The notes under the pieces: generated by a model | What the model saw: the letters and a program-made list of their open reading frames with translations, nothing else | What the model was told of the DNA's origin: nothing | The model's database searches: none | Assembly (NCBI GenBank): GCA_020627945.1 | Contig: JAHDFW010000006.1 | Location: 1-52,439 of the forward strand | DNA: 52,439 bases | DNA from: Cytophagales bacterium | Lineage (GTDB): Bacteria; Bacteroidota; Bacteroidia; Cytophagales; JAHDFW01 | Direction of reading: 5' to 3' | Translations under genes and position numbers: made by a program | In this document: positions 1 through 38,314 of the stretch, piece by piece | How the letters are laid out: every line of letters starts with the position of its first letter | Numbering within the stretch: position 1 is the first letter of the stretch

Positions 1-119
1 ACACTTAACTTTTCAGTAAACTTCCCCCAATTTTGCTCCTCTAGCAAATCAGCGTATTGAGTTCGCCAACGTTGCGAAAAATAATCTGGGAGATTTTTTA
101 GTAGACAATTTATTTCCAT
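1..119 (-). CDS. Partial CDS (first 39 codons, continues past the window start), function unknown
   Basis: A minus-strand ATG at 117-119 opens a frame with no stop down to position 1: MEINCLLKNLPDYFSQRWRTQYADLLEEQNWGKFTEKLS. It is cut off by the window edge and too short to assign. Confidence 0.3.
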   Translation of the reverse strand, partial: MEINCLLKNLPDYFSQRWRTQYADLLEEQNWGKFTEKLS

Positions 120-186: not shown

Positions 187-684
187 TCAAGGTACTTTTT
201 CCACAGTACATTTCAGTAGCTTCTTCATTCGTCCAAGCAATAAATTTCTTGAAATAATATACGCGCCATGAATAAATAACCTAAACAAGAGAGCCATAAT
301 GGTAAATGGTATTATAGCAAAAAATACACTTGGATCAAGTTCAGATATTTTGGTATCGGAAAAAATAAAAAATCCTAAAGGAATGCAAGGAATCACAACT
401 AGCCAAACATAATACAACCAAAAGAACGCTGGGTGTAATTGAGTTGTCAAATCTATTCGATTTTCGTCAGCTCGAGTTCCTTCACATTTGCACGCAGGGC
501 CCACACCAATGGTTGAACTAATCAATTTGAACCCACTCTCTGTTACTTGTCCTATGAATGATTTATTCGTTATGGTAGAAGTTAAACTACTGCTCTTATA
601 AGTATTAGCTAAGAGTGCCGCAGTAAAATCTTCCTGATTGGACTCATGAACTAACTTGTAATTATTCCTACTTCTATTTTGCAT
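187..684 (-). CDS. Hypothetical membrane protein (soluble N-terminal part of about 85 aa, then 2-3 predicted TM helices)
   Basis: 165-aa ORF with an ATG start 14 nt after the stop of the upstream gene. Hydrophobic stretches FFWLYYVWLVVIPCIPLGFFIF and FFAIIPFTIMALLFRLFIHGAYII. I recognise no family motif. Confidence 0.55.
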   Translation of the reverse strand: MQNRSRNNYKLVHESNQEDFTAALLANTYKSSSLTSTITNKSFIGQVTESGFKLISSTIGVGPACKCEGTRADENRIDLTTQLHPAFFWLYYVWLVVIPCIPLGFFIFSDTKISELDPSVFFAIIPFTIMALLFRLFIHGAYIISRNLLLGRMKKLLKCTVEKVP

Positions 685-698: not shown

Positions 699-1322
699 TT
701 ATACAACATCTAACTCAGGAGTTTCGTTATTCTCTTCTACGTATTCATTAATTTTCGGTTGTAAAATCCATACCCCCACAAAGAAAAACCAGATCATAAA
801 AAACTCTCCCGCATAATCCGAAAACGATAGTTCTTTTTGCAACTCAACCGTTTTAATAGTCTTTGATACAAAGTACAGATTATATAAGCTGCAAAACATG
901 GCGAACAAATGAAGTGGCACAATGGCCAAAAACGTAATTCCAAAAAGTGAAGGATCGTTTTCGTGACCTATCATATTCGTTACCGAAAACCCCATAAAGC
1001 TGAAAAATATCAGCATATAGATTAATGGAAAGAAAAATGTGAATCTAAAAAACTTGGTTTTCATTCGAAGGTGTTCTGGGATTTTTGATTGCAAACCGAC
1101 ACCTACAGCCCAATGCCAACCATAAGTAATAAACATAACGAGTAACATTATTATTGCATACAACACCATTCCAGCGACCATTCCGCCTACTTCAGGCCGG
1201 CCTCCAGAAGAATTTAACGAAGCAATAAAAACAAAAATCCAGATAAAATAAAAGAACATCGGTACTCCGAACATTAATAGAAACAACTGCCAATGTTTAG
1301 CTTTTAGAAAGAGGTTGGTCAT
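699..1322 (-). CDS. Hypothetical polytopic membrane protein (about 6 TM helices)
   Basis: 207-aa ORF starting 73 nt downstream of the NRPS stop on the same strand. It has several long hydrophobic segments (LFLLMFGVPMFFYFIWIFVFIASL, MVAGMVLYAIIMLLVMFITYGW, FFFPLIYMLIFFSFMGF, FFMIWFFFVGVWIL). No catalytic motif recognised. Confidence 0.65.
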   Translation of the reverse strand: MTNLFLKAKHWQLFLLMFGVPMFFYFIWIFVFIASLNSSGGRPEVGGMVAGMVLYAIIMLLVMFITYGWHWAVGVGLQSKIPEHLRMKTKFFRFTFFFPLIYMLIFFSFMGFSVTNMIGHENDPSLFGITFLAIVPLHLFAMFCSLYNLYFVSKTIKTVELQKELSFSDYAGEFFMIWFFFVGVWILQPKINEYVEENNETPELDVV

Positions 1323-1395: not shown

Positions 1396-4300
1396 TTAAA
1401 AATCAAAATCAAAATCTTCCCCTTCTTCTCGCTCCTCAATGCTTGTATTCTCAGTTTGTTCAACTAATTTAATCTCCGCAATTTTAATTTCTGGATTTCG
1501 TACAACCTCTTTTATTATATTCAAAACGGCTTCGGAAAACTCCTTAACCTGTTCTTCTGTAAATAAATCAGTGTTATATTCAAAAGCAAAACGAAACATT
1601 TCTCGACTTAGCGTTCCATAAAGCCATAGGTCGTACTTAGCAAAATTTAATTTCGTACTAACGGGCTTAATGGTTAAATCATTTACTTGATCTGGTGAAT
1701 CCCCACTTCCATGTTCACTTAGATCACCAAAATCATTCCATGAAAGTCCTTCGTTCACCAACGGCAGTCTACTATCATCTCTTTCTGGCTTAAGATCATC
1801 TAACAGCTTATCAAAAGGATAGTCCTGTCGATCAAAAACTTCTAAGGTTTGGGCCTTAACCTCTTGAAGTAATTCAATAAACGAGTGATTCGATTGCACC
1901 TCATTTCTCAATGCCAACATGTTGACATAATAACCGATCTGATTTTGTAATTCAGCTCTATTTCTTCCAGAAACTGGTGTTCCAATTACGATGTCATTTT
2001 GACCACTATATCTATACAGCAAAATCGACATTACCGTTTGCATTACTATGAATTCAGAAGTATTCCAATGATGCTTTACCAACTTGGTCAACTTTCTCGA
2101 TTCTTCAATGCTTAACTCAAAAACATGACGATCTCCTTTGTACGTTTTTTCAGTTGGACGGTCTTGAAAAGTAGGAAGTTGTAATGGCTTAACCTTACCT
2201 GAAAACTTATTTTTCCAGAATTCCGATAAACCTACTTCCGATCCATCAGCTATCAAAGCATTATGCCATGATGCAAAATCCTTGTATTGAATTTTTAATG
2301 GTTGTAAAGAAGGCTCTTTACCTGCATCAAAAGTAGCATAGACCTGCATTGCCTCTTTCATAAATAGTTCCATGGACCATCCATCACTAATGATATGGTG
2401 CATATTCAACCCAACTGCATACTGATTATCATCCACTTTAAAAACAGAGACTTTAAACAGTACATCGTTAAGAAGATCCAACGATTGATTGGCGTGTGTG
2501 GACAATGCTTTCTTCAATTCTTTCTGGTCAATCTCAACTAACTCAGTCTTTACATAATTCGGTTCCTCAATTATCTGGCTAGGCACTCCGCTAGAATCAA
2601 TAATTCTGGTTCTTAAAATTTCATGTCGCTGGACCATGTAGAATATCATACGTTCAAAAGCCTCAAAATTTAGCTGCCCTTGAATGTTAAATGCTAACGG
2701 AATATTAAACGTCGATGATGCCCCTTCACGAAGATATGACACCCAAAGCATTTGTTGAGCATGAGATAAAGGATAAGAATCTTGAGGTTCTAAAGGCCGA
2801 ATTGGATCTATTAGTATTGGCTTATTAATTTTCAATAACTCAACTTGATCTTTAAGCACTGGGCTCAAGAAAATATCTTTGATACTTAGTGGTAGGTTCA
2901 TTTCCTCTCTAACCAAATTAGACAATTGAGTAGCCTTTAAAGAGTGTCCTCCGATTTGGAAAAAATGCGATTCCATTCCAATCACATCTACTCCAAGGAC
3001 TCTTGTCCAGAGATTGACCAATGCCTTTTCAAGTTTAGTCGATGGTAAAGTGAGCACACCCGACTCAACTTCGTTTAATGCTAAAAACGGATCTGGTAAT
3101 TTTCTTCGATTGATCTTACCATTCTGTGTCAACTCAAATGATTCAACCAAAACAACAATCGAAGGAATCATATATTCTGGTAATTGATGTCTTAATTGAT
3201 CTCTTATGAACTCTTCGGATAAACCTTGACTGTCTTCCAAGTCTCGCACATATGCTACAATTAATTTGTCGTTCGTTTCAGTATTTTGAGTTACTATCAC
3301 TAAAGATTCTCCAACACCTTCTAATTGATTTATCGCTGATTCAATTTCCCCTAATTCAATACGGTATCCACGAATCTTAACCTGACTATCTTTTCTTCCT
3401 CCAAACTCCAATTCACCTTTGCGATTCCATCGCCCCAAATCACCTGAACGATAAACCACGCCTTGATCATAAGGATTCTCAATAAATCGATCTTTTGTCA
3501 ATTCTTCGCGATGCAAATAGCCCTGAGTAACTTGTGGTCCACCAATACAAATTTCTCCCCATACGCCATGAGGAACGGCCTTTAGAGCATCATCCAAAAT
3601 TAATATTTGATTATTTGAGGTTGGGTTACCTATTACATTTCCATGTAACTCAATTTTCGGATCAAAATCATAAGCGGTGCAAAACACCGTTGCTTCCGTA
3701 GGACCATAAAACACCGTGATTTTGGCATTTACAAATGTTGATGTCAAATCATGTAGTAACTCATTAGGAACCAAATCCCCACCTAGGCAAACTTGTTTAA
3801 TGTGATTAAAATCAGATCTAATATCGAGCGTATTTATAGAATCTACAATTTGCCGCATTAACGCAGGAACAGTGTGGAATACAGTACATACCTTAAGCTT
3901 CTCAACTAACAAACTGGAATCCAGTAAATCTTCTTTCTCCAATATCAATGTTCCACCTCCTTTCAGTAAGGCTGCAAATTGCTCAAAGAAAGAAATATCA
4001 AAAGCATTAGAAGCCATGAATGGCAGTAAATCATTCTCAGTAAGGCCATTAACTTCATCCAATGAAGATGCAAAGTTGAATAGATTACCATGGCTAACCT
4101 CCACTCCTTTTGGCTTCCCTGTCGAACCTGAAGTATATATGACATATGCTATATCAGAGTGTTTAACTGATCGAGCATTGATTGTCGCTTCCTGATTCCA
4201 ATTAAATTTCGTCAGGTCAATTTGGTCAATTGATTGCATATTTAACCCTGAGGCGACGTTGCTAATGATCAACTTTGCCTTACTATCATTCAGGATGTAC

Positions 4301-7300
4301 TCCTTTCTCTCTGTTGGATAGTCTACATCTATTGGAATATAAACTAACCCCAATTTAAGAAGAGCCAAAATAGTTGCTGTCAGTTCAGGTCCTCGACTCA
4401 TATGAACAACCACACGATCCCCTAAACCATATTTAGACCCCAACATTGCTGCCAAAACGTTTACCCTATGAAATAAAGTACTGTAAGTCCATTCAACGTC
4501 TCTAAACTTAAGAGCTACATTATCGGATACTAGATTAGCTTGATTTTGAATTAGATCTACGAAAACTTTCTCATTTGAAATAACCTTATTCTTATGAGAA
4601 TTCTTGGGTACTAAATCTGTAATACTTTGAACTGCAACAACGCTTAAATCACTAATTTTTGACTTCGGTTCTGCAACAATTGATTCCAACAACAACACAA
4701 AACCATCAGCCATACGTTGGATAGTTTGTTTATCAAATAAATGTGTGGCGTAGGTTAACGTTCCAACTAACTGATCTTTTAATTCTCTTAAATCTAAACT
4801 TAGATCAAACTTCGCAACTTTCTTAGTTGATCCAAAAGGTTTTAGAATCAGATTTTCCCTTATTTTATTTTCTTTCGAAGGTTCCTGCTCTCGGTAATTC
4901 AACAAGCTAAACATTGTTTCAAAAATTGGATTACGAGAAGGGTCTCTTGGAACGTCTAACAATTCTATTATTTCCTCAAATTGATATTCTTCATGTTCAA
5001 TTGCTGCAAGGTATGTCTGAGCGACTTGGTTTAAATAATCATTGAAGTTTAACTTAACATCTGGATAGGTTCTTATTGCTAATGAATTCACAAACATCCC
5101 TATGGTTCGATCAAGGTCAGAATGAACGCGACCTGCTGAAGGAATTCCTACGATTAGATCATATTGACCTGTATACTTCGAGAGCAGGATCTTATATATG
5201 CTCAGCAATCCCGCAAATAAAGTCACATTAGAATCAGCACAAATTGTTTTAAACTTATCCAGCAATTCTGATGGTATAGAAAGAGAGACATCATTGCCGT
5301 TAAATTTTTGAACTTTAGGGCGAGAATAGTCCAATGGCAATTGAAGCAACGGCAACTCTCCGTCTAGTTGTCCTTTCCAGTAATTTTCAAGTTGCTCAAA
5401 CTCCCCTTTTCTTCTTCGATCGTTTTGCCAATGAGCAAATTCCTTGTATTGAAGCGGCTCAGTATCATTAATAACACCTGCATAACCTTGTTTAAACTCT
5501 TTAACTAATATTTGAATGGAGTTTCCATCCGAAATGATGTGATGCAAATCCACTAACAAAACATGTCGATTGGTAGCAATGCGCAAGATCTCAACTCGGA
5601 TTAGGACATCATCAGCCAGATTGAATGGTCTAACAAAAGATTTCACAATATCTTCTGCCTCCTCTTCAGTAACTGAATGAACATTAATGGTAAGGTTAAC
5701 CCTATCATTTATCACTTGATAATTATGCTCTCCTTCAGCTATAAAGTTACTTCTCAAACTTTCATGTCGATCTACAAGACCTTGAAATGATTCTATTACT
5801 TTATTTACATCCAACTCTCCTTCAATCTCCATGATTGCTGGCATATTGTAAAAAGTAGACTGCTCATCGAAGCGATTCAGAAAATACATTCTTTGCTGAG
5901 CTGCGGATAATTCATATTTAGCATCTGCATTAAATACTCTAGGAATGAATTCATCTTTAGATTCCGAAGAGTTCTGAGCAATAATATAAATGGCCAAATC
6001 CTGTATTGTAGGATTGTTAAAAACATTAGCTAGAGTAATATTTACCGCAAAATGCTTTTTAATAGAATTAACCAAGGACATGGCCTTTAAAGAATGTCCT
6101 CCCACATCGAAAAAGCTACTAACTGTGGAAAGTCGCTCTTGATCCACTCCTAACACTTCAGACCAAATTTGCACCAATTTCTGCTCGGTATGATTGGTTG
6201 GTAGTTGCACTTCAACAACATTCAATTCTGGTAATGGAAGTGCTTTTTTGTCCACCTTCAAATGTCGAGTCAGTGGAATTGAATCTATTTCCATCACATG
6301 AGTAGGGATCATATACTCTGGCATCGACTTGCGAAGAAAAGGTTTGACATCAGGCAATTTGATGCCGTCTCCAACCAAATATGCACATAGAAACTTTTCC
6401 TGATTGTCTTGCTCCAAAGCAACAACTACGGCTTCTTTTACCTCTGCAATTTCAAGAAGGCATTGTTCTATTTCTTGTGGCTCTATTCGATAACCTCGAA
6501 TTTTCACCTGATCATTTGTTCTTCCTAAAAACTGTAATTCTCCATTATGATTCCATTGTACCAAATCACCCGTTCTATACAACCTTTCCTTTGAATCAAA
6601 AGGACTTTGAATAAATCTGTCGTGAGTTAATTTTTCTCTATTCAGGTACGAGCGTGCCACTCCTGCTCCACCAATAACGAGTTCCCCAGGAACTCCCGTA
6701 GGTTGCAACCTTAAATACTCATCTAAGACTAAAACGTACGTATTATTTATCGGTTTACCGATCTGAATAAAATCAGTATCATGATTCGTATATTTTTGAT
6801 AAGTTACACAAACCGTTCCTTCTGTCGGACCATACGTATTGTAAATCGTAGCGTAATTTTTTAGGTTAGAAACATAGCTTGGTTTTAGCACATCTCCTCC
6901 ACTGATGCAAATTTTTAAACTTTGGAAAGAAGTTAGTTTATTCAACTCATTCAAAAGCAACGGAGAACAAGTAATCATGCTAACTTTGTTGCTCCTTAGC
7001 AAATATTCTAACTGATCTAAATCTGTGACCTGCTCTCTTTTCGCGATAACAATTTGTCCCCCAACTAGCTGCGCAGGATAAAACTCTTCTACAAAAGCAT
7101 CAAAAGTGTATCTTGTTTGTTGTAGAACAACCTCTTCATGATTTAACGCAAATTCCTTTTGAAATGCTTCAACATAAGAAGATAGATTTCGATGCTCAAT
7201 TAAGCACCCTTTTGGCTGTCCCGTAGTACCAGAAGTATAAATAACATAAGATAAACTTTCAGGGTTAAACTGAACCTTTGGATTGCCAGATGATTGATTT

Positions 7301-10300
7301 TGAACCTCTGAATTATTGTAGAAAACATAACGAGAATCGCGTATAGTTTCTTTATCAGTTATTACCAGAAGAGGTTGAGCATCATTTAGAATAAATTCAA
7401 CTCGATCCTGTGGGTATTCTGGGTCAAGGGGCAAATATGCCGCTCCACTTTTCAAAATCCCCCATATGGAAGCAAACATTTCAAACCCTGGTTCCATTAA
7501 TATTCCAACCAAGGTATCTCTACCTGCACCCTTTTGAATCAAATAGTGAGCAACCTTATTGGCCTCGCTATTCAGTTCAAAGTAAGTCATTGTCCGATCC
7601 TCAAATTTTAATGCGACCTTATCAGAAGATTGCTCGACTTGTTTCTCAAATTGTTGAACAACACTATCATTTGAGTACTTCCATGACAGATTATTAAATT
7701 GTGTTAAGATCAAATCACGTTCATTTTGATCCATCAGTGCAATTCTACTTAAATCCTCTTTTGGTTTACTAATAAGGTTAGAAAGCAGCATCACAAACCG
7801 TTGATGCAATGACTCGATATCGTCTTTATCAAAAAATCGTTTTTGGTAGGACCACGTAAGTTCTAGGATTCCCTTTATGTTTTTGTTAGACTCATTAATA
7901 TGTATAGAAAGAGGACTTGAATCATACCCCGGATACCCATATTGCATGCTGTAACGATCTTCATGAACATCCTGATGACCAATCAAATTCACGTTTAATA
8001 ACTCATTCGCATCTATGTTATGTTGCCTACGAAGTTCTTCGGCTAAAAGGTCAAACGGATATTTTTGATATTGTTTAAGAATTGGATTTAATATATCCGA
8101 AACCTCTTGCAAGAGAGTATCAAAACTGCTGGTTTGCTCTACTTTGACTTTTACAGGGATAGTACTTACAAACATTCCAGAAGTATCCTGATCTATTTTT
8201 GAACTTCTTCCATGATTTACTCCTCCGATAATTACCTCATCTTCATAATTCTCATTGTAGGAACGTAAAAATACAGACAGTGCAGTAAGCAATATTTTGT
8301 ACAAGGACATTCCAGATTCCTCACAATAGCGCAGTAAATCTTGCCTTATATTCGATTCGAAGGCTATAGCTAAATGATCTGATTTAAGTGAATCCGACTT
8401 CGGTGCTGGAATAAACGAAGAGCGTTCAGGAATTGGCAGCAAATGTTGCTTCCAAAACTTTAAATGTTCAACGCTTGCATCTGAGTTAAGATATTTTCGT
8501 TCATTCTCAACGAAATCTAAATAATCTGGCAACGGCTCGCTATGAGGTTTATCACCAGATTTCAAAACTTCTAAAGCCTTGTAAACTTGATCACAAACAA
8601 GGAATATCGTCCAACCATCTCCAATTAAGTGATGTAAGTTCACCAAGTACATGGTTTGATCCTTAAACTCAACAATCTTGAAAGCAAACAATGGACCTCC
8701 TTCCAAGTTAAATGTAGTTTGTGCAAAAGGTTCTAAAACTTCACGCTTTAAATGTTCTTCACCATTTAGCCCGCATTTTATGGATTCAACATTTATTTCA
8801 TCCAAAGGAGGTGAAACATATTGATAAGGTTCCGAATTACCGTCTACCACCTTGATCCTTAATCTCAATGCTTGATTTTGATTTACGACATGCCTAAAAG
8901 CTTCTTTCAACAACTCATGATCTACATTTTCAGATAAGCCTATTAAAAATGCAGTATTATTAACAGAGGTATTCTCATAGATTTTTTCGGTAAAATAAAT
9001 TCTCCGTTGTGCATGTGAAAGGCCTGCAAGGTGCTTATTATTCCCACCTCCTGATAAATCTCCAATTCTTCTTTTTGGATTGCTAATTCCTTCTTTTAAG
9101 AGCAATTTAAATTGTCTCAGATAAGATTTGATTGTCTCAGGTTTGTATAAAGAAGATTTATACTCAACGCGCAACATGATTTTTTCACGATGTTCAAAAG
9201 CATACATCGTCAAGTCTACCTTTGCACTATTGGTAACTTCAAACGTATCATCCAGCGCACTTACATTGTTCAATTCCTCTTTGCCTAACATGTTCTGAAC
9301 AATCAAAGAAAAATCTGTAAGTGGGTTTCTTCCAGGTTCGGTTTTTATTTGCAAATCATTTAGTAGAACATCATATGGATAAAGTTGATTTTCAAATGCC
9401 TGAATGGACTCTTTCTTAACTTGGTTGATAAACTCAATAAAGCTCAATTCAGGCTTAGGCTTGTTCCTCATCAATACCGTTGAAATAAACAGTCCCATGG
9501 TATTTTGGAAAGCCTCTTCTGTCCTACCCGCAACGGGCGAACCAATAATAATGTCTTTTTCTCCTGTTTGTTTGTGTAATAATAATTGGTAACCAGCCAA
9601 CAGAACCATGTATAAGGTCATCTGATTTTTAGCACAAAACTCTCTAACCAAATCAGTTAATTCAGAATCCAATTCAAGATTATACATTCCACCTTCAAAA
9701 TACTGACCTGAACCTCGTGGATAATCCGTTTCTAAAGCAACTGATGGCAACTTTCCGCTAAGCTTTTTCAACCAGAATTCTCTTTGATCATTTAGGTTAC
9801 CAGCTTTTAATTGCTCATTAATCCATTCAGAATAGTCTTTGTATTGCAGTCCTTGAGTTGGTAATATTTCTCCTTTAAGCAGATTCTTAAATTCGTTGGT
9901 AAGTCTTTGTCTAGAGGAACCATCTGAAATAATGTGGTGAATGTCATGAAACAAATAGAATTGTTGTTCGTCTGTTTCAACTAAAGCGGCTCTGTACAAA
10001 GGAGCTTGATCCAAATAAAATGGTTGAGTATATTTTGTTACTACTGAATCTAATTCAGAAGATTTAATTCTAACATGCTCTAATTTAAAATCAACCCAGT
10101 CATGTACTTTTTGCATCACATCTTGCCCATGTTGAACAAATGAAGTTCGCAAAGGTTCGTGTCTCTCAATTAATAGTTCTAATGCTTCTTGAATGGATAG
10201 GTATTCTACGTCTGAGCCCAAATATTCCAAAGAAGGCATATTGAAAATATTGGAATCAGGATATTTATGATGCAAGAAATAGAAGTTGTTTTGAGCGGCT

Positions 10301-13300: not shown

Positions 13301-16300
13301 CTTTCTACTAACGAAATTAATGCTTGCTTAACCAATTTTAAATCAGAATCATCGGGGAGCTTTTGCTTAAACGTCATGTTATATTCCGACGATCCATCAA
13401 GAATTTTATCAAGCAACCATAAACGTTTTTGTGCTGCTGAGACCTCATAAAAGTCCGAATTAGGAAGCAATGGAATATCTTTAACATTTGTCGAACCCAT
13501 ACTGTGATCGACTAATTGGTCAATTTTTAGAGCAAGTGTCCTTACCGTTGGATATTCAAATAAATCTAAAAGGCGCAATTCCGAAGTCCATTTATTTTGC
13601 GCGGAGGCAATAACCGTAGCACCTCTTAAAGAATGTCCACCTAACTCAAAAAAGCTATCGTCTATCCCAAAATCATTCTTTTCTAGAACTTTTGTCCAAA
13701 TTTTGTATAAATCAATCTCCGTCTGACTTTTAGGAGCGGAAAATTCGTGTTTGGCAGTAGTATTACCTACAATATTATAATGATCCAGTTTGCTTGATTT
13801 GCTCCGAATCTCTTCGAATTCCTCCGAAGTAAGAAGGAGCAGATCTCCTAAAACTACATTCTGATCAGCTCCAAAAGCTTCCAACACCTGTTGTAATCCA
13901 TTTGCTAGATTCTCGATGGTTGCCTCTCGAAAAAGGTCTTTCCGATAGTTAAACTGAAACGCCAAATTAGTTTTTGAAAGACTTGCAGAAACAGTAATAT
14001 CAAACTTAGCGACCTCCGAACCTGATTCAATCTTAGAAACCATAAGTGCTTCAGAAGACTCTACGTTCAAATCCTCAAAAGTTAACACATTTAACATTAC
14101 ATCAAATAAAGGGTTTCGAGCTAGATCTCTTTTTATATCAAGTTCTGCTACAAGCTCTTCAAACGGATAGTCCTGATTTTCAAACGCATTCACAGTTTGA
14201 TTTTTGACTAAGAAAAGGTAATCTTCTATTCTCAAATTCTTTTCTGGTCGCAAACGTATTGGCAAAGTGTTGACAAACATCCCTAATACTCGTTTCAAAT
14301 CTGGATGCTTACGACCCGACGAAGCTGTACCTATAACTAAATCTTCCTGACCAGAATATTTACTCAACACAATGCTTAGTGCAGATATCACTAAAGTGAA
14401 CGGAGTTAACTGCAATTGTTCGGAAACTAAATTCAGTTTTTCCAGTATTGAAGAATCGACCTTCAGATAATAACTTCCACCTTCATGCCCTATATGAGAT
14501 GGTCGGTTAAAATCCAATGGAAGTGCCAACGTTTCAGGTAATACATTAAATTGATTTAACCAATATTCTCTTTCAACCTGAAATTGTGGAAGTTCACGCT
14601 TTCGGCTTTGCTGCTGTGCATACTCCTTATATTGAACCGATAGAGGCTCTAATTCCTCACCTTTAATCAGGTTAAGAAAATCAGAAGTTAAAATCTGCAT
14701 GGAGCCTCCATCTGAAATTATATGAGGCATATCAAACATCAGATAGCCTTTCTCTTTTTCTAATTTGAGAAATTCAGCTCGAAGCAAAGGTGGATGACTC
14801 AAGTCGAATGGTTTAACGAAATCCTTAAAATGCTTTTTAGCATCTAGGAATGAATCAACAGAAGTTTTTTTCAATTCAAAGTCTACATTTTCAACAATCT
14901 TCTGAACAGGAACACCTCCTTTCATTTCAAAAGAAGTCTTAAAACCTTCGTGCCTTTCAAACAATGTAATAATGGCATTTTCCAGTGATTCTAAATCAAT
15001 TTCACCTTCCAATTGAAGCATTGCAGGCATATTGTATTGAATGGAATTTCGACTTAACTGTGTTGTCAAAAACATCCTTTGCTGCGCTGGAGATAAAGGA
15101 TAAAATTCCAACTCCTCGGATGATCCAATTAAAGAGGCTGAAACCTCCTTAAAATTCTCGAAGTTCTCAGCCAGTTTTTGAACCGTAGGAAACTCAAACA
15201 ACTTTGAATATGCTATTTCAACTCCTAGTTGCTTGCTAACTTCACCTAATAATTCTATTACCTTAAGCGAGTGTCCGCCCAACCTAAAAAAATTATCGGT
15301 TACACCTACCTGTTCTTTTTCAAGAACTTGCTCCCAAATTTGAACTAGTTGTATTTCTATAATGGAAGAAGGAGCAACATATTCCTCCTCTAAATTATTA
15401 CCAACAGCATCTGGTTGTGGCAACAACTGCTTATCTATTTTTCCATTTGGAGTTAATGGAATTTGATCAAGTTCAATAAAGTATGAAGGCACCATGTAAT
15501 ACGGAAGTACCTCCTGCAAATGCTTTTTTAGTCCCTCTAGGTCTAAAAGATCTGAATAGACCAAATAAGCACATAAGTAATACAAGCCAGAACCATCTTT
15601 GTAGGGTATAACAGCACATTCCGTGATTTTAGGCTGTTCTAAGATAACATGTTCGATTTCTCCTGGTTCTACCCTGAATCCACGAATCTGAATTTGATGA
15701 TCACTTCTCCCTAAAAACTCAATATTTCCGTCTTCAATCCATCTGCCAACATCTCCCGTTTTATACATTACTTGCTCAGGAAAATATGGATTCTGGATAA
15801 AACGTTCTGAAGAATCAATTTCAGGATTAATGTATCCAGAACTTAGATTATCACCTCCCAAATAGATTTCACCTTGCATCCCAACAGGCACCAATTTCAG
15901 TTCCTTATCTAGAATATATACTTGGTTGTTAAAGATTGGTTTACCTACTGGAATGTTTACATAATTTTTTCGGACGTGATAAGTTGTTGAAATGATCGTA
16001 TTCTCCGTAGGGCCATAAACATTTACCAATTCAAATGATCCTGATTCAAACTTATTAAGCTTATCACCCCCTGTTAATAAATATCTTAACGAGTTATTCT
16101 TCTGTTCAAGGAAAAGTTCGCACGCTTGAGTAGGAATAAAAATTATTGAAATCTGATTCTTTTCTAAGTAGCTATTAAGTGCTCCCATGTCCAAACGAAT
16201 TTCTTCTGGAATCAAGTGCAGTGTACTTCCCGCAACAAGATTGGACACAATTTCCATATTGGATATATCAAAACTAAATCCTGCGTACTTAGCCGTATGA

Positions 16301-19300: not shown

Positions 19301-22300
19301 TCTTTTTCTAACACCTGATCTTTATCCAAAAGGATAGTCTTACCACCTTTGATCATTGCATTAAACAGCTCAAAAAATGATATATCAAATGCGTGAGAAG
19401 CTACAAAGGGCATCACATCACTTGATTTTATCTTATTAAGATGGTCTATTTCTTGAAGAAAAGAAGCAAGGTTCCCATGATTAACTAATACTCCTTTAGG
19501 TTTACCAGTACTCCCTGATGTGTAAATAATATAGGCATTATCTTCAGGTTCTATTTTTGCTAATTCAGAACTAACCTCCACTGTACTTAGGTCCTTGAAT
19601 AATTCCTTTACTTGAAGCTCTTCTACTGAACTAGAATATGTATTTTGACTATTGGAATCAGTTATTATTATTTTAGCTCCGCTATCTTCGACGATATGCT
19701 TAACCCTTTCTTCAGGATATTGTAGATCAGCAGGAACATAAACCGCACCTGCTTTCATTATTGCAAGCAGACATTCCACCAATTCCAAGCTCCTACTCGC
19801 ATATAGAACTACCCGATCACCTTTACTTACGCCTAAATCAATAAATTTGGAAGCCAATTTTGAGGAGTTATCTTCCAACTCGGCAAACGTTCTCGTAAGT
19901 TCACCATATTCCAGTGCAATACCTTGAGGGTTCTTGAGGGCTGCCTTGGAAAATAGAGAGATCAAATTGTTATTAATATCTATTTCTAGTCTAGCACCAG
20001 TACTACTTAAAACGACATCTTGTTCTTCTTCAGAATTTAGCAGCTGAATATCACCTATTGATTTAGCACTAACTAATTGCTCTAAGACCCTAACGTAAGA
20101 GCTGCTTAATCGTTGGATTGTGGATTCTCTAAAAAGAGAGGTGGCATAATTGAAATTAATAGATAGGCCTTCAATGTTTTCAGACGTTGTTAAACTTAAA
20201 TCAAATTTCGAAATGCCAGATGGATTGCTCATTTGCTCAAACTTCACCTCATCAGATTGTATAACCTCGCTTTCCAAATTCAGTAGAGAAAACATGGTAC
20301 TAAAAAGAGGATTTCTGGCTGGATTTCTTTCCAAGTTTAAATCATCTATAAGATCCTCTAATTGATATTCTTGATTTTCGACGGCCAGCATGCTAGTTTC
20401 AGCAACTTCTTTAACGTATTGGGATATAGTCTTACTCGAATCAGGTTTGGACCGAATTACCAGCGTATTTACGAACATTCCAATCATGCGATTCACCTGA
20501 GCCATTGAGCGACCAGAAGCTGGCGTACCAACTATTATATCATTTATGCCAGAATAATTACTTAGTAAAATCTTGTACGCACTAAGCAAAATCACAAAAA
20601 GCGTAGTATTGTTATCGCTAGCCAAATGACGTAGTTGTTCTGTCAAAGAATTATCTACGAAAGTAGAAGTCCAAGCTCCATCAAACTGCTGAATTGCAGG
20701 TCTATTAAAGTCATATGGTAATTCAAGAATCGGTATTTCATCCTCAAATTGATTTAACCAAAAAGCACGTTGCTTTACTAATAACCCACTTAAAAGTTGT
20801 TGCTGTTGCCATTCAGCATAATCATGATACTCGAGATCCAGAAGGGACAATTCAATCCCGTGATAGAGTTGAGTAAATTCCTCCATTAATATATTAAGAG
20901 AAATACCATCCGCAATGATGTGATGAATATCACAAAATAGGATAGATACATTATTGGGCGTCTTCAATAATTTGAAACGAAAGCAAGGTCCCTGCTCCAA
21001 ATTAAAAGGTTGAATAAAAGTTCTTAAAAAATCATAATCGGACGATTCACAAGCTTCCTGATGCAATTCAAACGAACTTTCTTCATAAATTTGCTGAACA
21101 TTTTTACCATTCTTCACATGAAATGTAGTTCGTAATGCAGAATGTCTCTTGATCAATTTTTCAAAGGCCAAATTGGCTTTCTCCCAGTCCAATGATCCTG
21201 TAACCTTAATGAACATTGGCATGTTATAAGCTACACTCTCTGGATCCAATTTGTACAGAAGCCACATTCTACTTTGAGCAGAGGATTGCAAATAGAACGG
21301 TTTAAGGTCCGAGAAAGGAATAACTTCTTCTGCATTCAAACCAGTTTCCAATTCCTCAAATTCTCCAGCAAACAATTCAATTGTGGGATTAGCAAAAAGC
21401 ATTTTAACCGATGCCTCCTTATTGGTCTGTTCTCTTACTAAAGTAATCAACCTATTTGCCAACAATGAATGACCTCCTAACTCGAAAAAATTATCTGAGA
21501 CACCAATTTGTTCTTTCTTAAATACATCCTGCCAAATCTCAACTAACAGTTTTTCAGCTTCTGTCCTTGGAGCTTTATAGACATTAATTCCAGAGTAATA
21601 TTCAGCTGCATTGGGAAGACTTTTTCGGTCTATTTTCCCATTAGATGTCAAAGGAAAGTGGTCTAGACGAATGATATAAGAAGGAATCATGTAGGTTGGC
21701 AAATCCTTCTTCAAATGGTCTTTAAGTTCACTTTCGTCAAATGCATCTGGATTACAAACCACAAATGCTACAATATATTTTTCCAGGTTCTCGGGATTTG
21801 CCTGATCCAAAACCAATACCTCCTGGATCGCTTGATGCTGCCCTATCCTACTTTGAATTTCTCCTAATTCAACCCTATAACCTCTAATTTTAACCTGATA
21901 ATCATTTCTTCCCTCGAAATATAAATTCCCATCATAACCCCACTTGGCTAAATCACCTGTTCGATAAATAAGTCCTTCTCCATAGGGATTGGACACAAAT
22001 TTCTTTTCATTTAGGTTTTCTCGATTCCAATAACCTTTAGTAACAGATGTACCTGCAACGCAGAGCTCTCCTATTACTCCTTGAGGGCAGACTTTCAGCT
22101 GATCATCTAATACGAATATCCTGCTATTAGGTATAGCTCTACCTATAGGATTTAGATGGATTTTTTCGGTTTTCAGGTAATCATAGACACTACAGAAAAT
22201 CGTTGCTTCAGTTGGACCATAAAGTATTTTAACCTCTGCATTCGGAAAAACGGCTTGTATTTTAGGTACTAATTCGGACGGCACTGCATCTCCACCTACA

Positions 22301-23844: not shown

Positions 23845-24003
23845 AGTTTAGTTATAGTTGAATATTAAAGATAGAAAGGTTGATGTTACTTTGCAATTAA
23901 ATCAAACCGCAAATTTGTTTAAACAATTTTCAGCTTTGCATAATTTAAAAAAGTATTAGCTGAGTTGAACACTAGATCCAGTCAAAACAGATAAGGTTCA
24001 CAT

Positions 24004-24396
24004 TTATTCCTTTGTGAAATACTCTATAAAATCTCTTACACTTAACATTTGCGTAAGCAAACTATCTGGCAAAGGTTTTTCAAACTCCTTTTCAAACTCC
24101 ATTACCAATTCAATCTGGTCTAATGAATCTGCACCAAAATCATCGAATATATCATCGTCAAGAACCATCTCTTCCTTTTCAACTCCTAGTTTATCAACGA
24201 AGATATCATAGGCAACTTGCTCTGGAGTTCTATTGGCCAAGGCCTGAGCTTTTTCAATAGAATCACGCTTCGGATAAGTCCAAATTCCATCCTGATGATG
24301 ATATACAGAATCGGGTAACGGATCAGGGTTTACAAAATTTCGTTCAAAAAATGTCTTTTTTTTCAGCTTCCTTGCTAGTATCGGCTTGTTGTTCAC
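24004..24396 (-). CDS. Free-standing acyl/peptidyl carrier protein (ACP-like) with an N-terminal extension of about 55 aa
   Basis: The C-terminal ~75 aa match the ACP fold and phosphopantetheine site: IFVDKLGVEKEE....FGADSLDQIELVMEFEKEF. The only canonical start in frame is GTG at 24394-24396, because an in-frame stop sits at 24412-24414. It lies 54 nt downstream of the UvrA-like gene and 159 nt upstream of the NRPS. Confidence 0.8.
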   Translation of the reverse strand: MNNKPILARKLKKKTFFERNFVNPDPLPDSVYHHQDGIWTYPKRDSIEKAQALANRTPEQVAYDIFVDKLGVEKEEMVLDDDIFDDFGADSLDQIELVMEFEKEFEKPLPDSLLTQMLSVRDFIEYFTKE

Positions 24397-24450
24397 AAGA
24401 TTTTGTCGCAGTTAACAACACCGAAATAATTATTAAAAATCTCATCGTAC

Positions 24451-27400
24451 TTACTTTAATTTTCCTGATTCCAGCCTATATACTTTTTGTGCTGCTTCAA
24501 TCATTGTTTGATTATGTTCAATAAAAATCAATGTGTCTCCTTTCTCAACAATTGACCTAAACACTTTAATTAATTTAATCACATCAAAATAATGAAGTCC
24601 AGTACTGGGTTCATCGAAGAGATATAAGGTTATCCCTTTTCTCTTTTGAATTAGGGAATTTGCTAGTTTCAACCTTTGGGCTTCTCCGCCAGATAATGTG
24701 TTTCCTGCCTGACCAAGAATCAAATGTCCAAGTCCTAAATCCACTAAAATCTGTAATTGCTCAATCAACGGTTCGGTTTCAAAAAATCGAATTGCTTCAC
24801 CGACCGTCAAATCTAATACCTGACCTATATTAAGAGCTTTCCACTTAACTTGCTGTACGTTCTCATTGTAGCGTGTACCATTACAAATATCGCAGTCCAA
24901 CCAAACATCACTCATAAAGTCCATGCTAGTTTTTACTTTTCCATGACCTGCACAGTTGGAACATTTCCCATTCTTACTTTGGTAAGAAAAATCTGCTTTT
25001 TTGAGATTTTGATTTTTGGCATCCTCGGTTTTAGAAAAGAGCATTTGAATTTTCTCAAGCATCCCTAAATAGGTCACTGGCGTACTCAATCGATTCTGTA
25101 AAAGTAATTCCTGATCAATCAGTAAAACATTATCAAATTGATCCAAACCGTAAATCTCATCGCATTCGATTGGTCTGCTTTTTAAATATGATTTATACAA
25201 AACATCTTTGACCAAACTAGATTTACCACTTCCTGAAACTCCTGTAATCGCAATTAACTGTTGTGATTGAAATTCAACATTTATCTTCTGAAGGTTATTT
25301 GCACTGGCACCACTAATTCCAAATGCAAGTCCCTCTTGAGTATCTATTAAGATTTGTTTGGAAGATTCTTGAAGCATTTGGTATGTGAGAGATTGCTTCT
25401 CGTTAAAAACACCTTCCGTCACACCTTGATAAATTACCTCCCCTCCCTCTCTACCTGCACCTGGTCCTAGTTCAATTAGATAATCTGCTTCCTGAATAAA
25501 TGTAGGATCATGCTCGACCACAACAACAGTATTCCCGTTAGCAACGACCTTTTTCAACGCTTTTGTTAAAACTTTAATCTGAACACTATCTAAGCCGATT
25601 GTTGGTTCATCTAACACATAGGTAACTCCAAATAGATGTGTTGACAATTGGCCTGCCAACATAACTCGTTGCCTCTCTCCTCCTGACAAAGTAGCTATTG
25701 AACGGTCTAATGTTAAATATCCAAGTCCGAGAGCCTTCATCGTATTTAAAGTAGTCTCAACCGCAGGAATCACTTTTTTCACAATTGCTTTTTCTACGGA
25801 ATCAGAATGAACAAAATCCTCTCCCAATAAAACTAACAACTCTGAAATATTTAAGCTCGTAAATTGATGAATATTCTTTCCTTGAAACCTTATATCTAGT
25901 AATTCTTGCTTCAAACGGCCACCACCACAAGCATTACAAATCACTGGATTTAGCAATTCTTCTAGAGACTTAATATTCTTATTTAATTTCTTGCGTTCAT
26001 ACTCATCATCAATATAACCACAAAATCCTAACCATTTTGCTGAAACGGCTTGAACACCAGAGCGAGATTTAGTCTTGAATTCCCACTCCGTATCCCAAAC
26101 CTGATCTCCTGTTCCATGCAAAATTATATTTTGAACATGCTCCGACAACTTACTCCAAGGTTCATTAAGATCGAACTGATTCTTTCTAGCTACTTCCTTA
26201 AGAATGGCTACAAACTGACCATCGGGGTTTGAATAATACCCTATTGCCTTGTTATTAGAAATTGCCCCATCTAAAATGGTTTTTGAGTGATCTATAATAA
26301 TCTCATCAGGATCGCAAGTTAGAATATTCCCCACTCCTTCACATTGAGAGCATGCACCTAAATGATGATTGAAAGAAAAATGTTGTGCTGAAAATTCAAC
26401 GCCCGTACTCTGTGCAATTCTTGAATACAAAAGACGAAAAGACTCATATGCTCCAGATAAAGTACCAACTGTGGATCTTTTTGAAGCCCCACCTCCTTTA
26501 CGATTAATTCCAATGGCTGGACCTAATCCTGAGAAAGATTGAATTTGAGCAACATTCGTCTGGTTTACAAAACTTCGACTGTATACGGAAAGAGACTCCA
26601 AAAATCTCGTATTCGCTTCCGAAAATAATGTATCATATACTAGTGACGATTTTCCACTTCCCGAAAGACCCGTAACTACTGTCAATTGGTTCTTTGGAAT
26701 CCTTACGTCAATATTCTTTAGCCCATGGGTTTCAACTCCATTTAACACAATATTTTTGGTGAAACTATTTATAGTCTTAGCTTGCAATAAAGGGGGCACA
26801 ATTCTTTCTCGATTAGGAACTCCTTGAAATACTATAGTTCCTCCTTGCTGACCTCCCGTAGGTCCAAGTTCGATATGCCAGTCGCATGCTTCAATAATGG
26901 ACTCATGTTGTTCTATACAAACAATTGTATTCCCATTCTGTTTGATTCTTTCAAACATTGCGAGCAATGATTGAATATTGGAATAGTGTAATCCAATGGT
27001 TGGTTCCACTATAATGTAAAGAGTATCTCCAGTATCTTTTTTCTGAAGTTGATTGGCAATTTTTATTCGTTGCGCTTCACCACCAGACAATGTGGTTGAT
27101 GATTGACCTAATGTGAGGTAGCCCAAGCCTATCTCCTGCAAGATTTCCAATCCAGACAGAATTTTATTTTGACCCTCAAAAAAAACTATAGCTTCATTAA
27201 TGGACAATTTATAAATATCCGCGATGGACCTTCCTTGGTACCTAACACGCAACGTATCTTGATTAAATCGATCTCCATTACAATCACCACAAATTAAATC
27301 TACGTCACCAAGAAAGTGCATTCCGATTTGTGTTTTGCCTGCGCCCTGACAAGTTTCACATCTTCCCCCCTTATTGTTAAAAGAAAATCTAGACTTCGAA

Positions 27401-29193
27401 TATCCAAAAGACTTAGCATCGGATTGCTTAGCAAACAAATCGCGAATATGATCTGAAATATTCAAGTAGGTTGCGGCATTACTTCTAGGTGTTTTTCCTA
27501 TTGGTGAATGATCTATAAAAATCAGTTTATCAATTTTATTCAAGTTCTCAATACTAGTTATTGCACTTGAATCATAATTCTGTCCATCGAGAAATTGAGT
27601 AACCGACTTTAACAAAATTTCTTTCACTAGGCTTGATTTTCCTGAACCAGAAGGACCACTGACTACGTTAAATTCACCTAGACGAAATTCAACGTCAATA
27701 TTCTTCAAATTTCTGGTTCTACAACCTATTAATTTTAAAGCATCTCCATTTGAAACCGTAGAACTCTTCTCAATTTTAGATACTGGATTTACAAGCGCTT
27801 CGTAAGTTGGGCTTATACTTTTGAGGGTTTGATCTTTGATAAAATTCGATAATTCACCATTATAAATCAGTTCTCCTCCATGCACACCTGCTTTTGGTCC
27901 TATTTCGATTATATGATCTGCATTCCGTATGGTTTCTAAATCATGTTCAACTACAATGACCGTATTTCCCTTCTGCACCAATTTCCTTAGCTGATAAATC
28001 ATTCGGTGCTTCTCGTCCAAATCCAAACCAATTGAAGGTTCATCGAAAATATAAAGCACGTCACTTAAAGGCATTAAGATTTGATTAGCGACTCTGAGTC
28101 TCTGTATTTCACTTGATCGAAGAGTATTCGAAGGTCTATTCAAAGTTAAATGTCCTAAACCAAGATCAACCAACACGTTTATTTTAGCACTAATTTTTTC
28201 TTTAATTTTCAGCCCTACTTTGTTCCACTTATTAGCATTTATCCAATTCTTTAATTCATGCAATTCGAAACTCGACACTTCCGCTATTGTAGCTCCATTA
28301 ACATATACACTTAAAGCATCTTGATTTAAACGTGTCCCATCACATGACTGACACACAACCGAGCTTACATATTTTAGAATATTGGCGTTTCGGTCTCTTC
28401 GAAGAATGTCCGACATAATCGGCATCATTCCTCTATAATACCCTTCTTCTCTAGGTTTAGCTTTAATCCCAGTCCACTTAAGGCGAGATTCTAAACTGTG
28501 TTTACCAAATGGAACTTTTATTTTCTCACTTCCATAAAGGATCACTTTCTGCTGTTCATTGGTTAGTTCGTCCCAAGGTATGTCCACGTTAAATCCTTCT
28601 GCTTCACAAACCTGATTAAGAACATCTATGGTTACTTGTGAATACATTATATATCCTGTTGGAAGGGTTGGTGCCAAAGCTCCTTCCCTTAGCGTCTTTT
28701 CAGGATGCACTACGAGCTTATTTAAATCAATTTTCTCCTCGTTCCCAATTCCATTACATTGCTGACATTTACCTGCTACTGAATTAAATGAGAAAAGTGC
28801 TCTAGACAACTGAATTTCACGATCTGTTGTACCTGTTCTTGCAAACAACAATCGAAGCAAACCATAAAGATCGGACATAGTGCCTACCGTCGATCTGGCA
28901 TGCATTCCAGAAGTTTGTTGACCTATAGCAATTACAGGAGAAAGGCCTTCTATTTCATCAACATCTGGACGGTTTAACTTTCCTACAAACTGGCGTGCAA
29001 AAGAAGGAAGAGTTTCGAAATACCTTCGTTGACCTTCCTTAGCTATTATATCAAAAACTAAACTTGATTTTCCTGATCCAGAAATCCCTGTAACAACGAT
29101 AAATTTGTTGTGAGGAACCTTGAGAGATACGTTTTTGAGGTTATTAGTATTCGCCCCTTTGATAGAAATATTCGCATGCCTATTCAAATTCAT
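24451..29193 (-). CDS. Tandem-fused double UvrA-like ABC ATPase (two complete UvrB-binding-domain-less UvrA units in one 1580-aa protein)
   Basis: Four Walker A sites: GISGSGKSS (Lys42), GPSGSGKSS, GLSGSGKSS (Lys848 at 26650-26652) and GVSGSGKSS. Signature motifs: LRSSE (degenerate), LSGGEAQRIKIANQL, LSGGERQRVMLAGQL, LSGGEAQRLKLANSL. UvrA-type CxxC zinc modules are present in each half: CQQC/CQSC/CETC..CGDC and CSQC/CNAC/CSNC..CDIC. In both halves the LLFARxG-like segment runs almost straight into LFSFN...C..C, so the ~135-aa UvrB-binding insert of canonical UvrA is missing. Confidence 0.9.
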   Translation of the reverse strand: MNLNRHANISIKGANTNNLKNVSLKVPHNKFIVVTGISGSGKSSLVFDIIAKEGQRRYFETLPSFARQFVGKLNRPDVDEIEGLSPVIAIGQQTSGMHARSTVGTMSDLYGLLRLLFARTGTTDREIQLSRALFSFNSVAGKCQQCNGIGNEEKIDLNKLVVHPEKTLREGALAPTLPTGYIMYSQVTIDVLNQVCEAEGFNVDIPWDELTNEQQKVILYGSEKIKVPFGKHSLESRLKWTGIKAKPREEGYYRGMMPIMSDILRRDRNANILKYVSSVVCQSCDGTRLNQDALSVYVNGATIAEVSSFELHELKNWINANKWNKVGLKIKEKISAKINVLVDLGLGHLTLNRPSNTLRSSEIQRLRVANQILMPLSDVLYIFDEPSIGLDLDEKHRMIYQLRKLVQKGNTVIVVEHDLETIRNADHIIEIGPKAGVHGGELIYNGELSNFIKDQTLKSISPTYEALVNPVSKIEKSSTVSNGDALKLIGCRTRNLKNIDVEFRLGEFNVVSGPSGSGKSSLVKEILLKSVTQFLDGQNYDSSAITSIENLNKIDKLIFIDHSPIGKTPRSNAATYLNISDHIRDLFAKQSDAKSFGYSKSRFSFNNKGGRCETCQGAGKTQIGMHFLGDVDLICGDCNGDRFNQDTLRVRYQGRSIADIYKLSINEAIVFFEGQNKILSGLEILQEIGLGYLTLGQSSTTLSGGEAQRIKIANQLQKKDTGDTLYIIVEPTIGLHYSNIQSLLAMFERIKQNGNTIVCIEQHESIIEACDWHIELGPTGGQQGGTIVFQGVPNRERIVPPLLQAKTINSFTKNIVLNGVETHGLKNIDVRIPKNQLTVVTGLSGSGKSSLVYDTLFSEANTRFLESLSVYSRSFVNQTNVAQIQSFSGLGPAIGINRKGGGASKRSTVGTLSGAYESFRLLYSRIAQSTGVEFSAQHFSFNHHLGACSQCEGVGNILTCDPDEIIIDHSKTILDGAISNNKAIGYYSNPDGQFVAILKEVARKNQFDLNEPWSKLSEHVQNIILHGTGDQVWDTEWEFKTKSRSGVQAVSAKWLGFCGYIDDEYERKKLNKNIKSLEELLNPVICNACGGGRLKQELLDIRFQGKNIHQFTSLNISELLVLLGEDFVHSDSVEKAIVKKVIPAVETTLNTMKALGLGYLTLDRSIATLSGGERQRVMLAGQLSTHLFGVTYVLDEPTIGLDSVQIKVLTKALKKVVANGNTVVVVEHDPTFIQEADYLIELGPGAGREGGEVIYQGVTEGVFNEKQSLTYQMLQESSKQILIDTQEGLAFGISGASANNLQKINVEFQSQQLIAITGVSGSGKSSLVKDVLYKSYLKSRPIECDEIYGLDQFDNVLLIDQELLLQNRLSTPVTYLGMLEKIQMLFSKTEDAKNQNLKKADFSYQSKNGKCSNCAGHGKVKTSMDFMSDVWLDCDICNGTRYNENVQQVKWKALNIGQVLDLTVGEAIRFFETEPLIEQLQILVDLGLGHLILGQAGNTLSGGEAQRLKLANSLIQKRKGITLYLFDEPSTGLHYFDVIKLIKVFRSIVEKGDTLIFIEHNQTMIEAAQKVYRLESGKLK

Positions 29194-32280: not shown

Positions 32281-32379
32281 ATTTACAACCTATGTACACC
32301 AATACCTCCAACAACACCATCGAGAAATACGCTGTTACTATCAAAGACGCCTTTAACTACCCTTTTCTCAAATCAAAAT

Positions 32380-33933: not shown

Positions 33934-33942
33934 ACCCCGTAA

Positions 33943-34950: not shown

Positions 34951-35075
34951 TATTTAAAACTAAACAAGTGTTATATATCCAACTAAATTTCGGACAAGTT
35001 AGGAAAAAAAACATAACTAATTGTATATTTTACAATTTCTTTTTGTTTCTTTGGATTAAACAAAATTAATACACT

Positions 35076-38126: not shown

Positions 38127-38259
38127 TAACTTTAACGAATGAAAAAGATTACCATTTTGAAACCAAAAAGCTAGAATAAAACAACCCTAATAAATAAAAT
38201 AATTAGATAAGGTAACATCCAAAACCCTGTGACAACTTAGACTATCATGGATAATTTAG

Positions 38260-38267: not shown

Positions 38268-38314
38268 ATATAACATCATAGATAATATTCATCTAAATTA
38301 ATGTATAGAATTCC

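Follow-up and report, generated by a model that had tools for sequence, protein, structure and literature searches.

The 52,439-nucleotide contig JAHDFW010000006.1 of a Cytophagales bacterium (hereafter the window) encodes on its minus strand a nonribosomal peptide synthetase (NRPS) of 7482 residues as a single open reading frame (ORF) (1396..23844). In this protein an elongation-type condensation (C) domain, C5, is directly followed by a second one, C6, assigned to the chain-initiating (starter) clade, and then by an adenylation (A) domain with a Lys-like specificity code. We consider it reasonably probable that the protein is a functional NRPS subunit in which C6 carries out an acylation at a Lys-like residue, and that the UvrA-like ATPase encoded upstream is unrelated to it. 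The modular NRPS is a known kind of enzyme; what is new here is an embedded starter domain like that of the icosalide synthetase with a different residue, of the Lys/Orn type, in the branch module. By analogy with that system, the product is most likely a branched or mid-chain-lipidated peptide.

An embedded starter domain before a Lys/Orn-type module

The domain order of the protein is c½-A1-T1-C1-A2-T2-C2-A3-T3-C3x-T4-C4-A4-T5-C5-C6-A5-T6-C7-A6-T7-C8-tail, where c½ is an N-terminal half C domain and T stands for a thiolation (carrier) domain, and the tandem unit T5-C5-C6-A5-T6 lies within this one polypeptide. C5 (9022..10332, minus strand) is located directly after T5 and is LCL-like, its best match in the PDB being the TycC6 C domain (1.7e-79). 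C6 (7675..9024, minus strand), of the embedded starter type, is separated from C5 by a linker of about 10 residues and carries the motif HHLIGDG. It is followed by A5 (6190..7662, minus strand), whose code DAETIGTVCK is Lys-like.

C6 is the outlier among the eight complete C domains, scoring 74-122 bits against its siblings, which score 168-335 bits among themselves. Against the starter C domain of the surfactin synthetase SrfAA it reached 150 bits, above any sibling score; this reference sequence behaved as a genuine C domain in a check. In a sample of 270 related NRPS proteins, 12 of 929 C domains were closest to C6 among the C domains of the window. Eight of these 12 are found at the N-terminus of their protein, four directly after another C domain and none after a T domain, the position held by 711 of the other C domains (Fisher p = 2e-8). 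This restriction to N-terminal or post-C positions is the signature of chain-initiating C domains, and on these grounds C6 is assigned to the starter clade.

The specificity codes were extracted against a GrsA reference that was checked by the recovery of DAWTIAAICK. In four related proteins (P0297, P0377, P0398 and P0318) both C domains of the pair were matched in one stretch, with the arrangement T-C-C-A. The A domain after the pair has an identical code, DAETIGTVCK, in the window, P0377 and P0318, the code DAESIGTVCK in P0398 (matching the window at 9 of 10 positions) and the code DVQEVGSIDK in P0297. These codes resemble those published for Lys (DAESIGSV, BacB-M1; PMC3207962) and for Orn (DVGEIGSIDK; PMC3992020), indicating that all five cassettes found precede a diamino-acid module (Lys- or Orn-type in 5/5). 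The N-terminal C6-like starters, by contrast, are followed by A domains with varied codes.

Two of these proteins, P0318 (locus L087, from a metagenome-assembled genome of Candidatus Aminicenantes) and P0398 (locus L088), are hybrids of polyketide synthase and NRPS that contain the same embedded C-Cstarter-A cassette. The presence of the cassette in such hybrids of other lineages suggests that it moves or is selected as a unit.

Comparison with the icosalide synthetase

The icosalide synthetase IcoA of Burkholderia gladioli contains an LCL-CI tandem and has been described as a "double chain-initiating" NRPS (PMC6553374). Mass spectrometry of intact proteins revealed that its embedded CI domain N-acylates the Ser attached to the peptidyl carrier protein that lies downstream with a 3-hydroxyacyl thioester, and the upstream chain is then taken up, through the LCL domain, on the hydroxyl of the acyl group (PMC6553374; PMC10510592). 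IcoA and the window protein, which come from different phyla, are likened by domain order alone: in both, an elongation C domain is followed by an embedded starter C domain and by A-T within one polypeptide. By this analogy, the starter-type C domain would open a second acylation event in the middle of the line.

The two proteins differ at their ends, IcoA having an N-terminal starter C domain and a thioesterase (TE), whereas the window protein begins with a half C domain and ends with a terminal C domain, without a TE. They also differ in the residue of the embedded module, which in IcoA is Ser, giving an ester on the 3-hydroxyacyl chain, whereas the window and its four relatives have a Lys/Orn code and, with it, a second amine. 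If this reading is true, the window would provide a second, chemically different case of "double priming" on one NRPS, with acylation or branching taking place mid-chain at lysine, in a phylum whose peptide chemistry has been little explored. It would also hint at a three-domain cassette that could be reused in engineering branched lipopeptides.

Domain architecture of the NRPS

The protein is a modular (type I) NRPS, as shown by its A, T and C domains, which were called by Pfam on ten consecutive 750-aa pieces, by motif scans and by a C-domain hidden Markov model (HMM) built from the protein itself. A first-pass annotation of this DNA had counted 6 A, 7 T and 8 complete C domains plus an N-terminal half C domain in a frame of 7482 codons, and this count is confirmed by the ORF map, Pfam, the motifs and the HMM. 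In residues of the protein, module 1 comprises c½ (5-245), A1 (258-737) and T1 (766-826). It is followed by C1 (844-1284), A2 (1299-1777) and T2 (1805-1868), by C2 (1881-2329), A3 (2340-2802) and T3 (2832-2893), by C3x (2908-3353) and T4 (3379-3438), and by C4 (3459-3910), A4 (3921-4395) and T5 (4424-4487). The tandem, in module 6, occupies C5 (4505-4941), C6 (4934-5390), A5 (5399-5862) and T6 (5888-5954), and the protein ends with C7 (5970-6418), A6 (6433-6910), T7 (6941-7004), C8 (7017-7476) and the tail EDFDFDF.

The six A domains give AMP-binding matches with E values from 1e-50 to 1e-84, with core motifs A3, A5, A7, A8, A9 and A10 intact and A4 divergent (SYGSTE). The seven T domains give PP-binding matches and have GGHS in 7/7. 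HHxxxDG is present in seven of the eight full C domains, the other being C3x, which has PHIISDG and keeps the second His. C3x belongs to module 4 (C3x-T4; 13480..15123, minus strand), which has no A domain and should therefore be loaded by a neighbouring or trans-acting one. The upstream NRPS of locus L084 (1-8232) also has the PHIISDG variant in one of its C domains, and because of this recurrence it is best taken as a conserved variant and not as a lesion.

A-less modules that are loaded in trans are known, e.g., module 9 of syringomycin SyrE with SyrB1/SyrC, and ramoplanin. They have C and T without A, as C3x-T4 does, but the window contains no stand-alone A-T or aminoacyl-transferase gene.

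As for the substrates of the remaining A domains, the codes of A1, A2 and A6 are almost identical (DIFH[FYC]G[LF][IV]FK), so that the line probably uses one type of residue three times.

Four departures from the textbook architecture (half C domain, A-less module, doubled C domain, missing TE) could be regarded as deletion or fusion scars of a decaying relic whose cluster makes nothing. The lack of accessory genes in the window and of any ortholog in our searches would fit such a relic. Nevertheless, we find this explanation highly improbable. The 22.4-kb frame is uninterrupted, its catalytic motifs and every A, T and C core motif are intact, and conservation in independent relatives was seen for each of the following: half-C start, C-C pair, PH variant and tail. 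In addition, neither the upstream acyl carrier protein (ACP) gene nor the 159-nt gap between it and the NRPS gene, which is AT-rich and has stops in all frames, contains any trace of the missing C lobe or an A-T module, and the base composition of the NRPS locus is the same as that of its flanks. The internal DNA repeats of the NRPS gene are at most 75% identical, and thus a collapsed assembly of this region is unlikely.

Relatives of the NRPS and subunit junctions

When 1.84 billion representatives were searched exhaustively with HMMER, using T5-C5-C6 as query, no ortholog was found, the best identity being 36-38%. A word-indexed search with the N-terminal 845 aa returned only proteins shorter than about 1500 aa and missed the self-match, so that the index seems to lack giant NRPSs and this negative is a weak one. 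The predicted novelty of the product rests on there being no relative above 38% identity in the searches made.

At the N-terminus, the half C domain (23110..23844, minus strand) begins at an "EEYW" motif and comprises the C-terminal lobe only, without HHxxxDG, covering only positions ~182-456 of the C-domain HMM profile; 29 of 271 related NRPS proteins begin in the same way. At the C-terminus, C8 and its tail ...EGEDFDFDF (1399..2796, minus strand) show the motif HHIISDG and an LCL-like sequence (TycC6 match 5.5e-66); the NRPS has neither a TE nor a reductase (R) release domain, and the terminal C8 resembles a subunit-junction C domain. P0297 and P0377 share the whole grammar of the window protein: a half C domain opens the protein, a C-C tandem lies within it, and a terminal C domain followed by an aromatic-acidic end closes it. 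Their half C domains start with EEFWLDKL (P0297) and EEYWLNYL (P0377), compared to REEYWYKV in the window, and their last residues are FGFDI and WDFEF, respectively, compared to FDFDF.

Together with P0182 (locus L086), these two metagenomic NRPS subunits form a small family with the window protein and share with it the order c½-A-T...C-Cstarter-A(Lys/Orn)-T-C followed by an aromatic-acidic tail, without a TE. They differ from it in being ~32-38% identical, in having their own epimerization (E) domains and fewer modules, in belonging to multi-subunit clusters, and in the C domain that precedes the starter-type one, which has SHxxxDG in the three relatives and HHxxxDG in the window. The P0377 locus (L084) contains three consecutive NRPS genes and a CmlA-like hydroxylase gene, and neither a TE, a free ACP nor a UvrA was found in it; its last NRPS gene ends in a C domain plus tail with no TE after it. 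L086 contains two consecutive NRPS genes with the same c½-after-C junction, and in both loci every c½ subunit is preceded by a subunit ending in a C domain.

In the sample of 270 proteins, an aromatic-x-aromatic tail is present in 37 of the 74 proteins that end in a C domain and in 6 of the 196 others (p = 8e-19), and a half-C start is present in 29 proteins. Since both features recur in relatives, the half C domain and the terminal C domain appear as features of the family and not as deletion scars. Taken together, the half C domain and the C-tail are most simply the two predicted faces of a subunit junction, and they may form a docking pair. The window NRPS is probably one subunit of a larger line that has been cut off by the end of the contig, with its partner subunits or release functions beyond that end, because in the relatives such half C and C-tail ends lie at subunit junctions. 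The description of the locus as a "single-polypeptide" NRPS in the first-pass annotation is thus doubtful.

A different interpretation is a self-contained line without partners, which would start at A1-T1, with the half C domain as a structural platform for A1, and in which C8 would free the chain by macrocyclising it or by passing it to a small nucleophile, like the terminal C domains of fungi. It is true that no TE was found anywhere, that no other NRPS gene lies directly upstream or downstream, that the HHIISDG of C8 is intact, and that terminal C domains can release chains (PMC10510592); the last NRPS gene of L084 provides a similar ending. However, C8 belongs to the ordinary LCL-like domains and lacks the SHxxxD motif that fungal CT domains have, in the relatives the C-tail end and the c½ start are found at the junctions of consecutive subunits, and a same-strand, operon-like run of ORFs is still open at the contig end, 1.4 kb downstream. 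A line that works alone is therefore an unlikely explanation, though one that deserves to be kept in mind, and we favor the subunit of a larger line.

Tails of the form ...DFDF, ...EFNF and ...DFEF were also seen across proteins P0254-P0403 (the window tail is at 1399-1440), and half-C starts at an "EYWxxKL" motif in many NRPS subunits (the window N-terminus is at 23740-23844). P0254, the top match with a "half C", was dismissed as a split gene, as an ORF for a 190-aa C fragment is located just upstream of it.

The stand-alone ACP

Upstream of the NRPS gene and on the same strand there is a gene for an ACP-like protein (24004..24396; core residues 64-126). The protein matches PF00550 (2.6e-12), has the serine motif GADSLD and matches AcpP-type NCBIfam models below their cut-offs, so that by these features the ACP is of the fatty acid synthase (FAS) type. 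It had been annotated as a 130-aa protein; the ORF with its GTG start is real, but its length is an upper bound, given that a TTG at codon 53 would produce a canonical protein of 78 aa. No close homologue was found among 5.8 billion clusters, the best matches being 42-54% identical over the core only, and the genomic contexts of relatives that were inspected were acpP-fabF, phage and a miscellaneous locus. With the ACP as query, 80 loci for generic ACPs were obtained in a metagenome scan, and neither an NRPS nor a UvrA was present in any of them. Only its position ties the ACP to the NRPS.

A 32-codon ORF, MRFLIIISVLLTATKSCEQQADTSKEAEKKDIF* (24347-24445, minus strand), overlaps the start of the ACP gene in another frame and looks like a leader peptide of the signal or lipoprotein kind. 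Homopolymer runs (A8 and T6) stand at its end, and it may alternatively be a chance ORF in AT-rich DNA.

Proposed assembly line

According to our proposal, the chain would grow from A1-T1 through C1 and the following modules up to T5, on a line with seven carrier domains, T4 being loaded by a neighbouring or trans-acting A domain. By analogy with IcoA, C6 would N-acylate one amine of the Lys-like residue that A5 loads onto T6, with an acyl thioester serving as donor. C5 would then join the T5-bound pentapeptide to the other amine or, as in icosalide, to a hydroxyl on the acyl chain. After that, C7 and A6 would add one further residue, and C8 would pass the chain to a partner subunit or, failing this, release it by itself. 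The FAS-type ACP encoded upstream is a candidate acyl carrier for C6, on the basis of its adjacency. The idea that the free carrier presents the starter unit, which had been put forward for this locus, fails at the N-terminus, where the half C domain lacks the catalytic lobe; an acyl group brought by the carrier could serve the embedded C6 instead, a starter-type domain that the first-pass annotation had missed.

Several observations weigh against this proposal. The subtype of C6 derives from context enrichment and a single reference sequence, not from curated subtype HMMs, and the relatives that support the cassette are distant (at most 38% identity) and few. No verifiable substrate match was obtained for the codes of A1, A2 and A6, nor for those of A3 (DIMFLGVIIK) and A4 (DSNHKTSLNK). 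The window lacks an acyl-activating enzyme, a phosphopantetheinyl transferase (PPTase), a TE and an exporter. Regarding the ACP, its nearest relatives are housekeeping, phage or miscellaneous ACPs, and the four related loci in which an embedded C-C pair is present or nearby all lack a stand-alone ACP, which means that it is not a conserved partner of the NRPS. Furthermore, a one-base error at the A8 or T6 run would fuse the leader of the 32-codon ORF to the ACP frame, and an exported ACP-like protein would then be predicted.

A more far-reaching version of the proposal is that [elongation C]-[starter C]-A(Lys/Orn)-T is a conserved device, present in more than one phylum, that uses a diamino acid to set up a branch or to attach a lipid in mid-chain, unlike the Ser/3-hydroxyacyl ester of icosalide. 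In the window this device would be fed by a dedicated FAS-type ACP, and the half C domain and the tail would be an undescribed docking pair joining subunits that are split between C and A. We offer this version only tentatively, as a possibility that falls well short of being probable.

The tandem UvrA-like ATPase

The third gene of the locus (24451..29193, minus strand) encodes a 1580-aa double UvrA-like ATPase, each half of which lacks the UvrB-binding domain. Each half matches UvrA in two pieces, skipping residues ~118-270 (the UvrB-binding domain), and aligns in one piece to Deinococcus UvrA2 (DrUvrA2; 2VF7), so that the architecture is a tandem of two class-II-like units with four ATPase modules/Walker A sites. 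Nevertheless, both halves are closer to class I than to DrUvrA2 or Ecm16: the N-terminal half gives 1e-192 against class I, 1e-152 against 2VF7 and 1e-126 against Ecm16 (7SH1), and the C-terminal half gives 1e-165, 1e-135 and 1e-112, respectively.

The first-pass annotation had likened the NRPS, the ACP and this protein to actinomycete pathways for DNA-binding peptides. On such a model the three would form one biosynthetic unit, in which the carrier would present an aromatic starter and the UvrA-like protein would confer self-resistance of the DrrC/Ecm16 type. UvrA-like genes do mark intercalator clusters in actinomycetes (PMC9328131, PMC10413001), and the absence of the UvrB-binding domain is shared with class II UvrA. 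The three genes follow one another on the same strand, 54 nt (24397-24450) and 159 nt (23845-24003) apart. No terminator was predicted around these gaps, and promoter scans (sigma-70 and Bacteroidetes TAnnTTTG) gave nothing above chance.

The distribution of the tandem UvrA, however, argues against such a unit. Its homologues include over 100 proteins of ~1590 aa at 64-68% identity, among them those of Saprospiraceae, Crocinitomicaceae, Fulvivirga, Dokdonia, Kordia, Polaribacter, Lewinella and Roseivirga. In a scan using one genome per species, 141 relatives were obtained, of which 80 loci were kept with flanks of up to 10 kb on each side; identities to the window protein were 46-69% across at least 80 species of Bacteroidota, spread over Flavobacteriales, Cytophagales, Saprospiraceae and Bacteroidales. 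The window ACP was found in 0/80 of these loci, and phmmer of all flanking ORFs gave no credible match at E < 10 either, in the 64 loci that have downstream sequence. Using the first 1300 residues of the NRPS as query, a condensation domain was found within 10 kb of UvrA in 0/80 loci, and A-domain matches in 2/80, these being distant (23-33% identity). The order PorP-OmpA-UvrA of locus L055 (Parvicellaceae) is syntenic with the upstream side of the window, and nothing NRPS-like follows it. Conversely, UvrA and a stand-alone ACP are both missing from the four related NRPS loci retrieved. The co-occurrence check proposed with the functional triad thus came out with the result named beforehand as its refutation, none of the four NRPS relatives retrieved neighbouring ACP or UvrA genes.

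The chemistry points in the same direction, since a carrier-bound starter would find no catalytic C domain at the N-terminus of the NRPS to accept it, and no aryl-acid ligase, chromophore gene, acyl/aryl-AMP ligase or acyltransferase was found in the window (Pfam, all ORFs of at least 100 aa). DrrC, Ecm16 and TrsM (Streptomyces class IIa) are UvrA-derived ABC ATPases that lack the UvrB-binding domain and are encoded next to an NRPS, and in this the window is alike. However, the window protein is a tandem duplication of 1580 aa, closer to class I UvrA than to Ecm16, spread throughout the Bacteroidota without association with NRPSs and without intercalator chemistry nearby. It shows neither an affinity to class IIa nor co-travel with the cluster, and therefore the window system is not of the DrrC/Ecm16 type. 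Neither the functional triad nor the self-resistance role is supported, and a DNA-binding-peptide unit is a very unlikely explanation.

The tandem UvrA is a conserved chromosomal gene of the Bacteroidota (78% mean column identity among 10 members from different families) and most likely does not belong to the NRPS system; its adjacency to the NRPS is best read as coincidence, given its conservation without NRPS or ACP in the 80 loci. We have found no description of this duplicated-UvrA class in the searchable literature. For genome mining, this means that the 1580-aa tandem UvrA is common in Bacteroidota and that a uvrA-like neighbour is not a marker of DNA intercalators there, unlike in Streptomyces. 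There remain at the locus an orphan synthetase that is intact and has a branching cassette both unusual and apparently conserved, and, as a possibility, a docking system made of the C-tail and the half C domain.

Other genes of the window

The coordinates assigned by the first-pass annotation to the ACP-like and double UvrA-like ORFs upstream of the NRPS gene and to two small membrane ORFs downstream of it proved exact. The first of the downstream ORFs (699..1322, minus strand) starts 73 nt past the NRPS stop and encodes a multi-pass membrane protein of 207 aa with no family match; the second one (187..684, minus strand) encodes a 165-aa protein with a hydrophobic C-terminal part and no significant family match. 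They are followed by an ORF of which the first 39 codons are present (1..119, minus strand; it begins MEINCLLKNLPDYFSQRWRTQYADLLEEQNWGKFTEKLS) and which is interrupted by the contig end. This cut ORF was tried as the start of the next NRPS subunit and rejected, because 1609 of 2000 shuffles scored equally well.

The window was also said to hold no usual NRPS accessory. Indeed, Pfam found no TE, E, cyclization (Cy), methyltransferase (MT), MbtH or PPTase in any window ORF of at least 100 aa, six-frame motif scans of the window found no MbtH, PPTase or TE, and a motif scan for E, dual E/C and Cy domains found none in the window. This is nonetheless a weak statement, as the window is the entire contig and terminates 1.4 kb beyond the NRPS stop. 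Neither tRNA genes nor repeats were detected as island borders.

The rest of the window contains genes for cargo of the type IX secretion system (T9SS), PorP/SprF and OmpA/PD40 proteins, which make the Bacteroidota origin of the contig sound. The view of the locus as a large intact orphan NRPS on a T9SS-bearing Bacteroidota contig, with an adjacent stand-alone carrier and no TE, is upheld. Two sets of T9SS cargo, OmpA/PD40 and PorP/SprF genes are found within 29230-47173, with PorP at 33943-34950 and 41100-42119 and the OmpA-like genes at 32380-33933 and 42163-44511.

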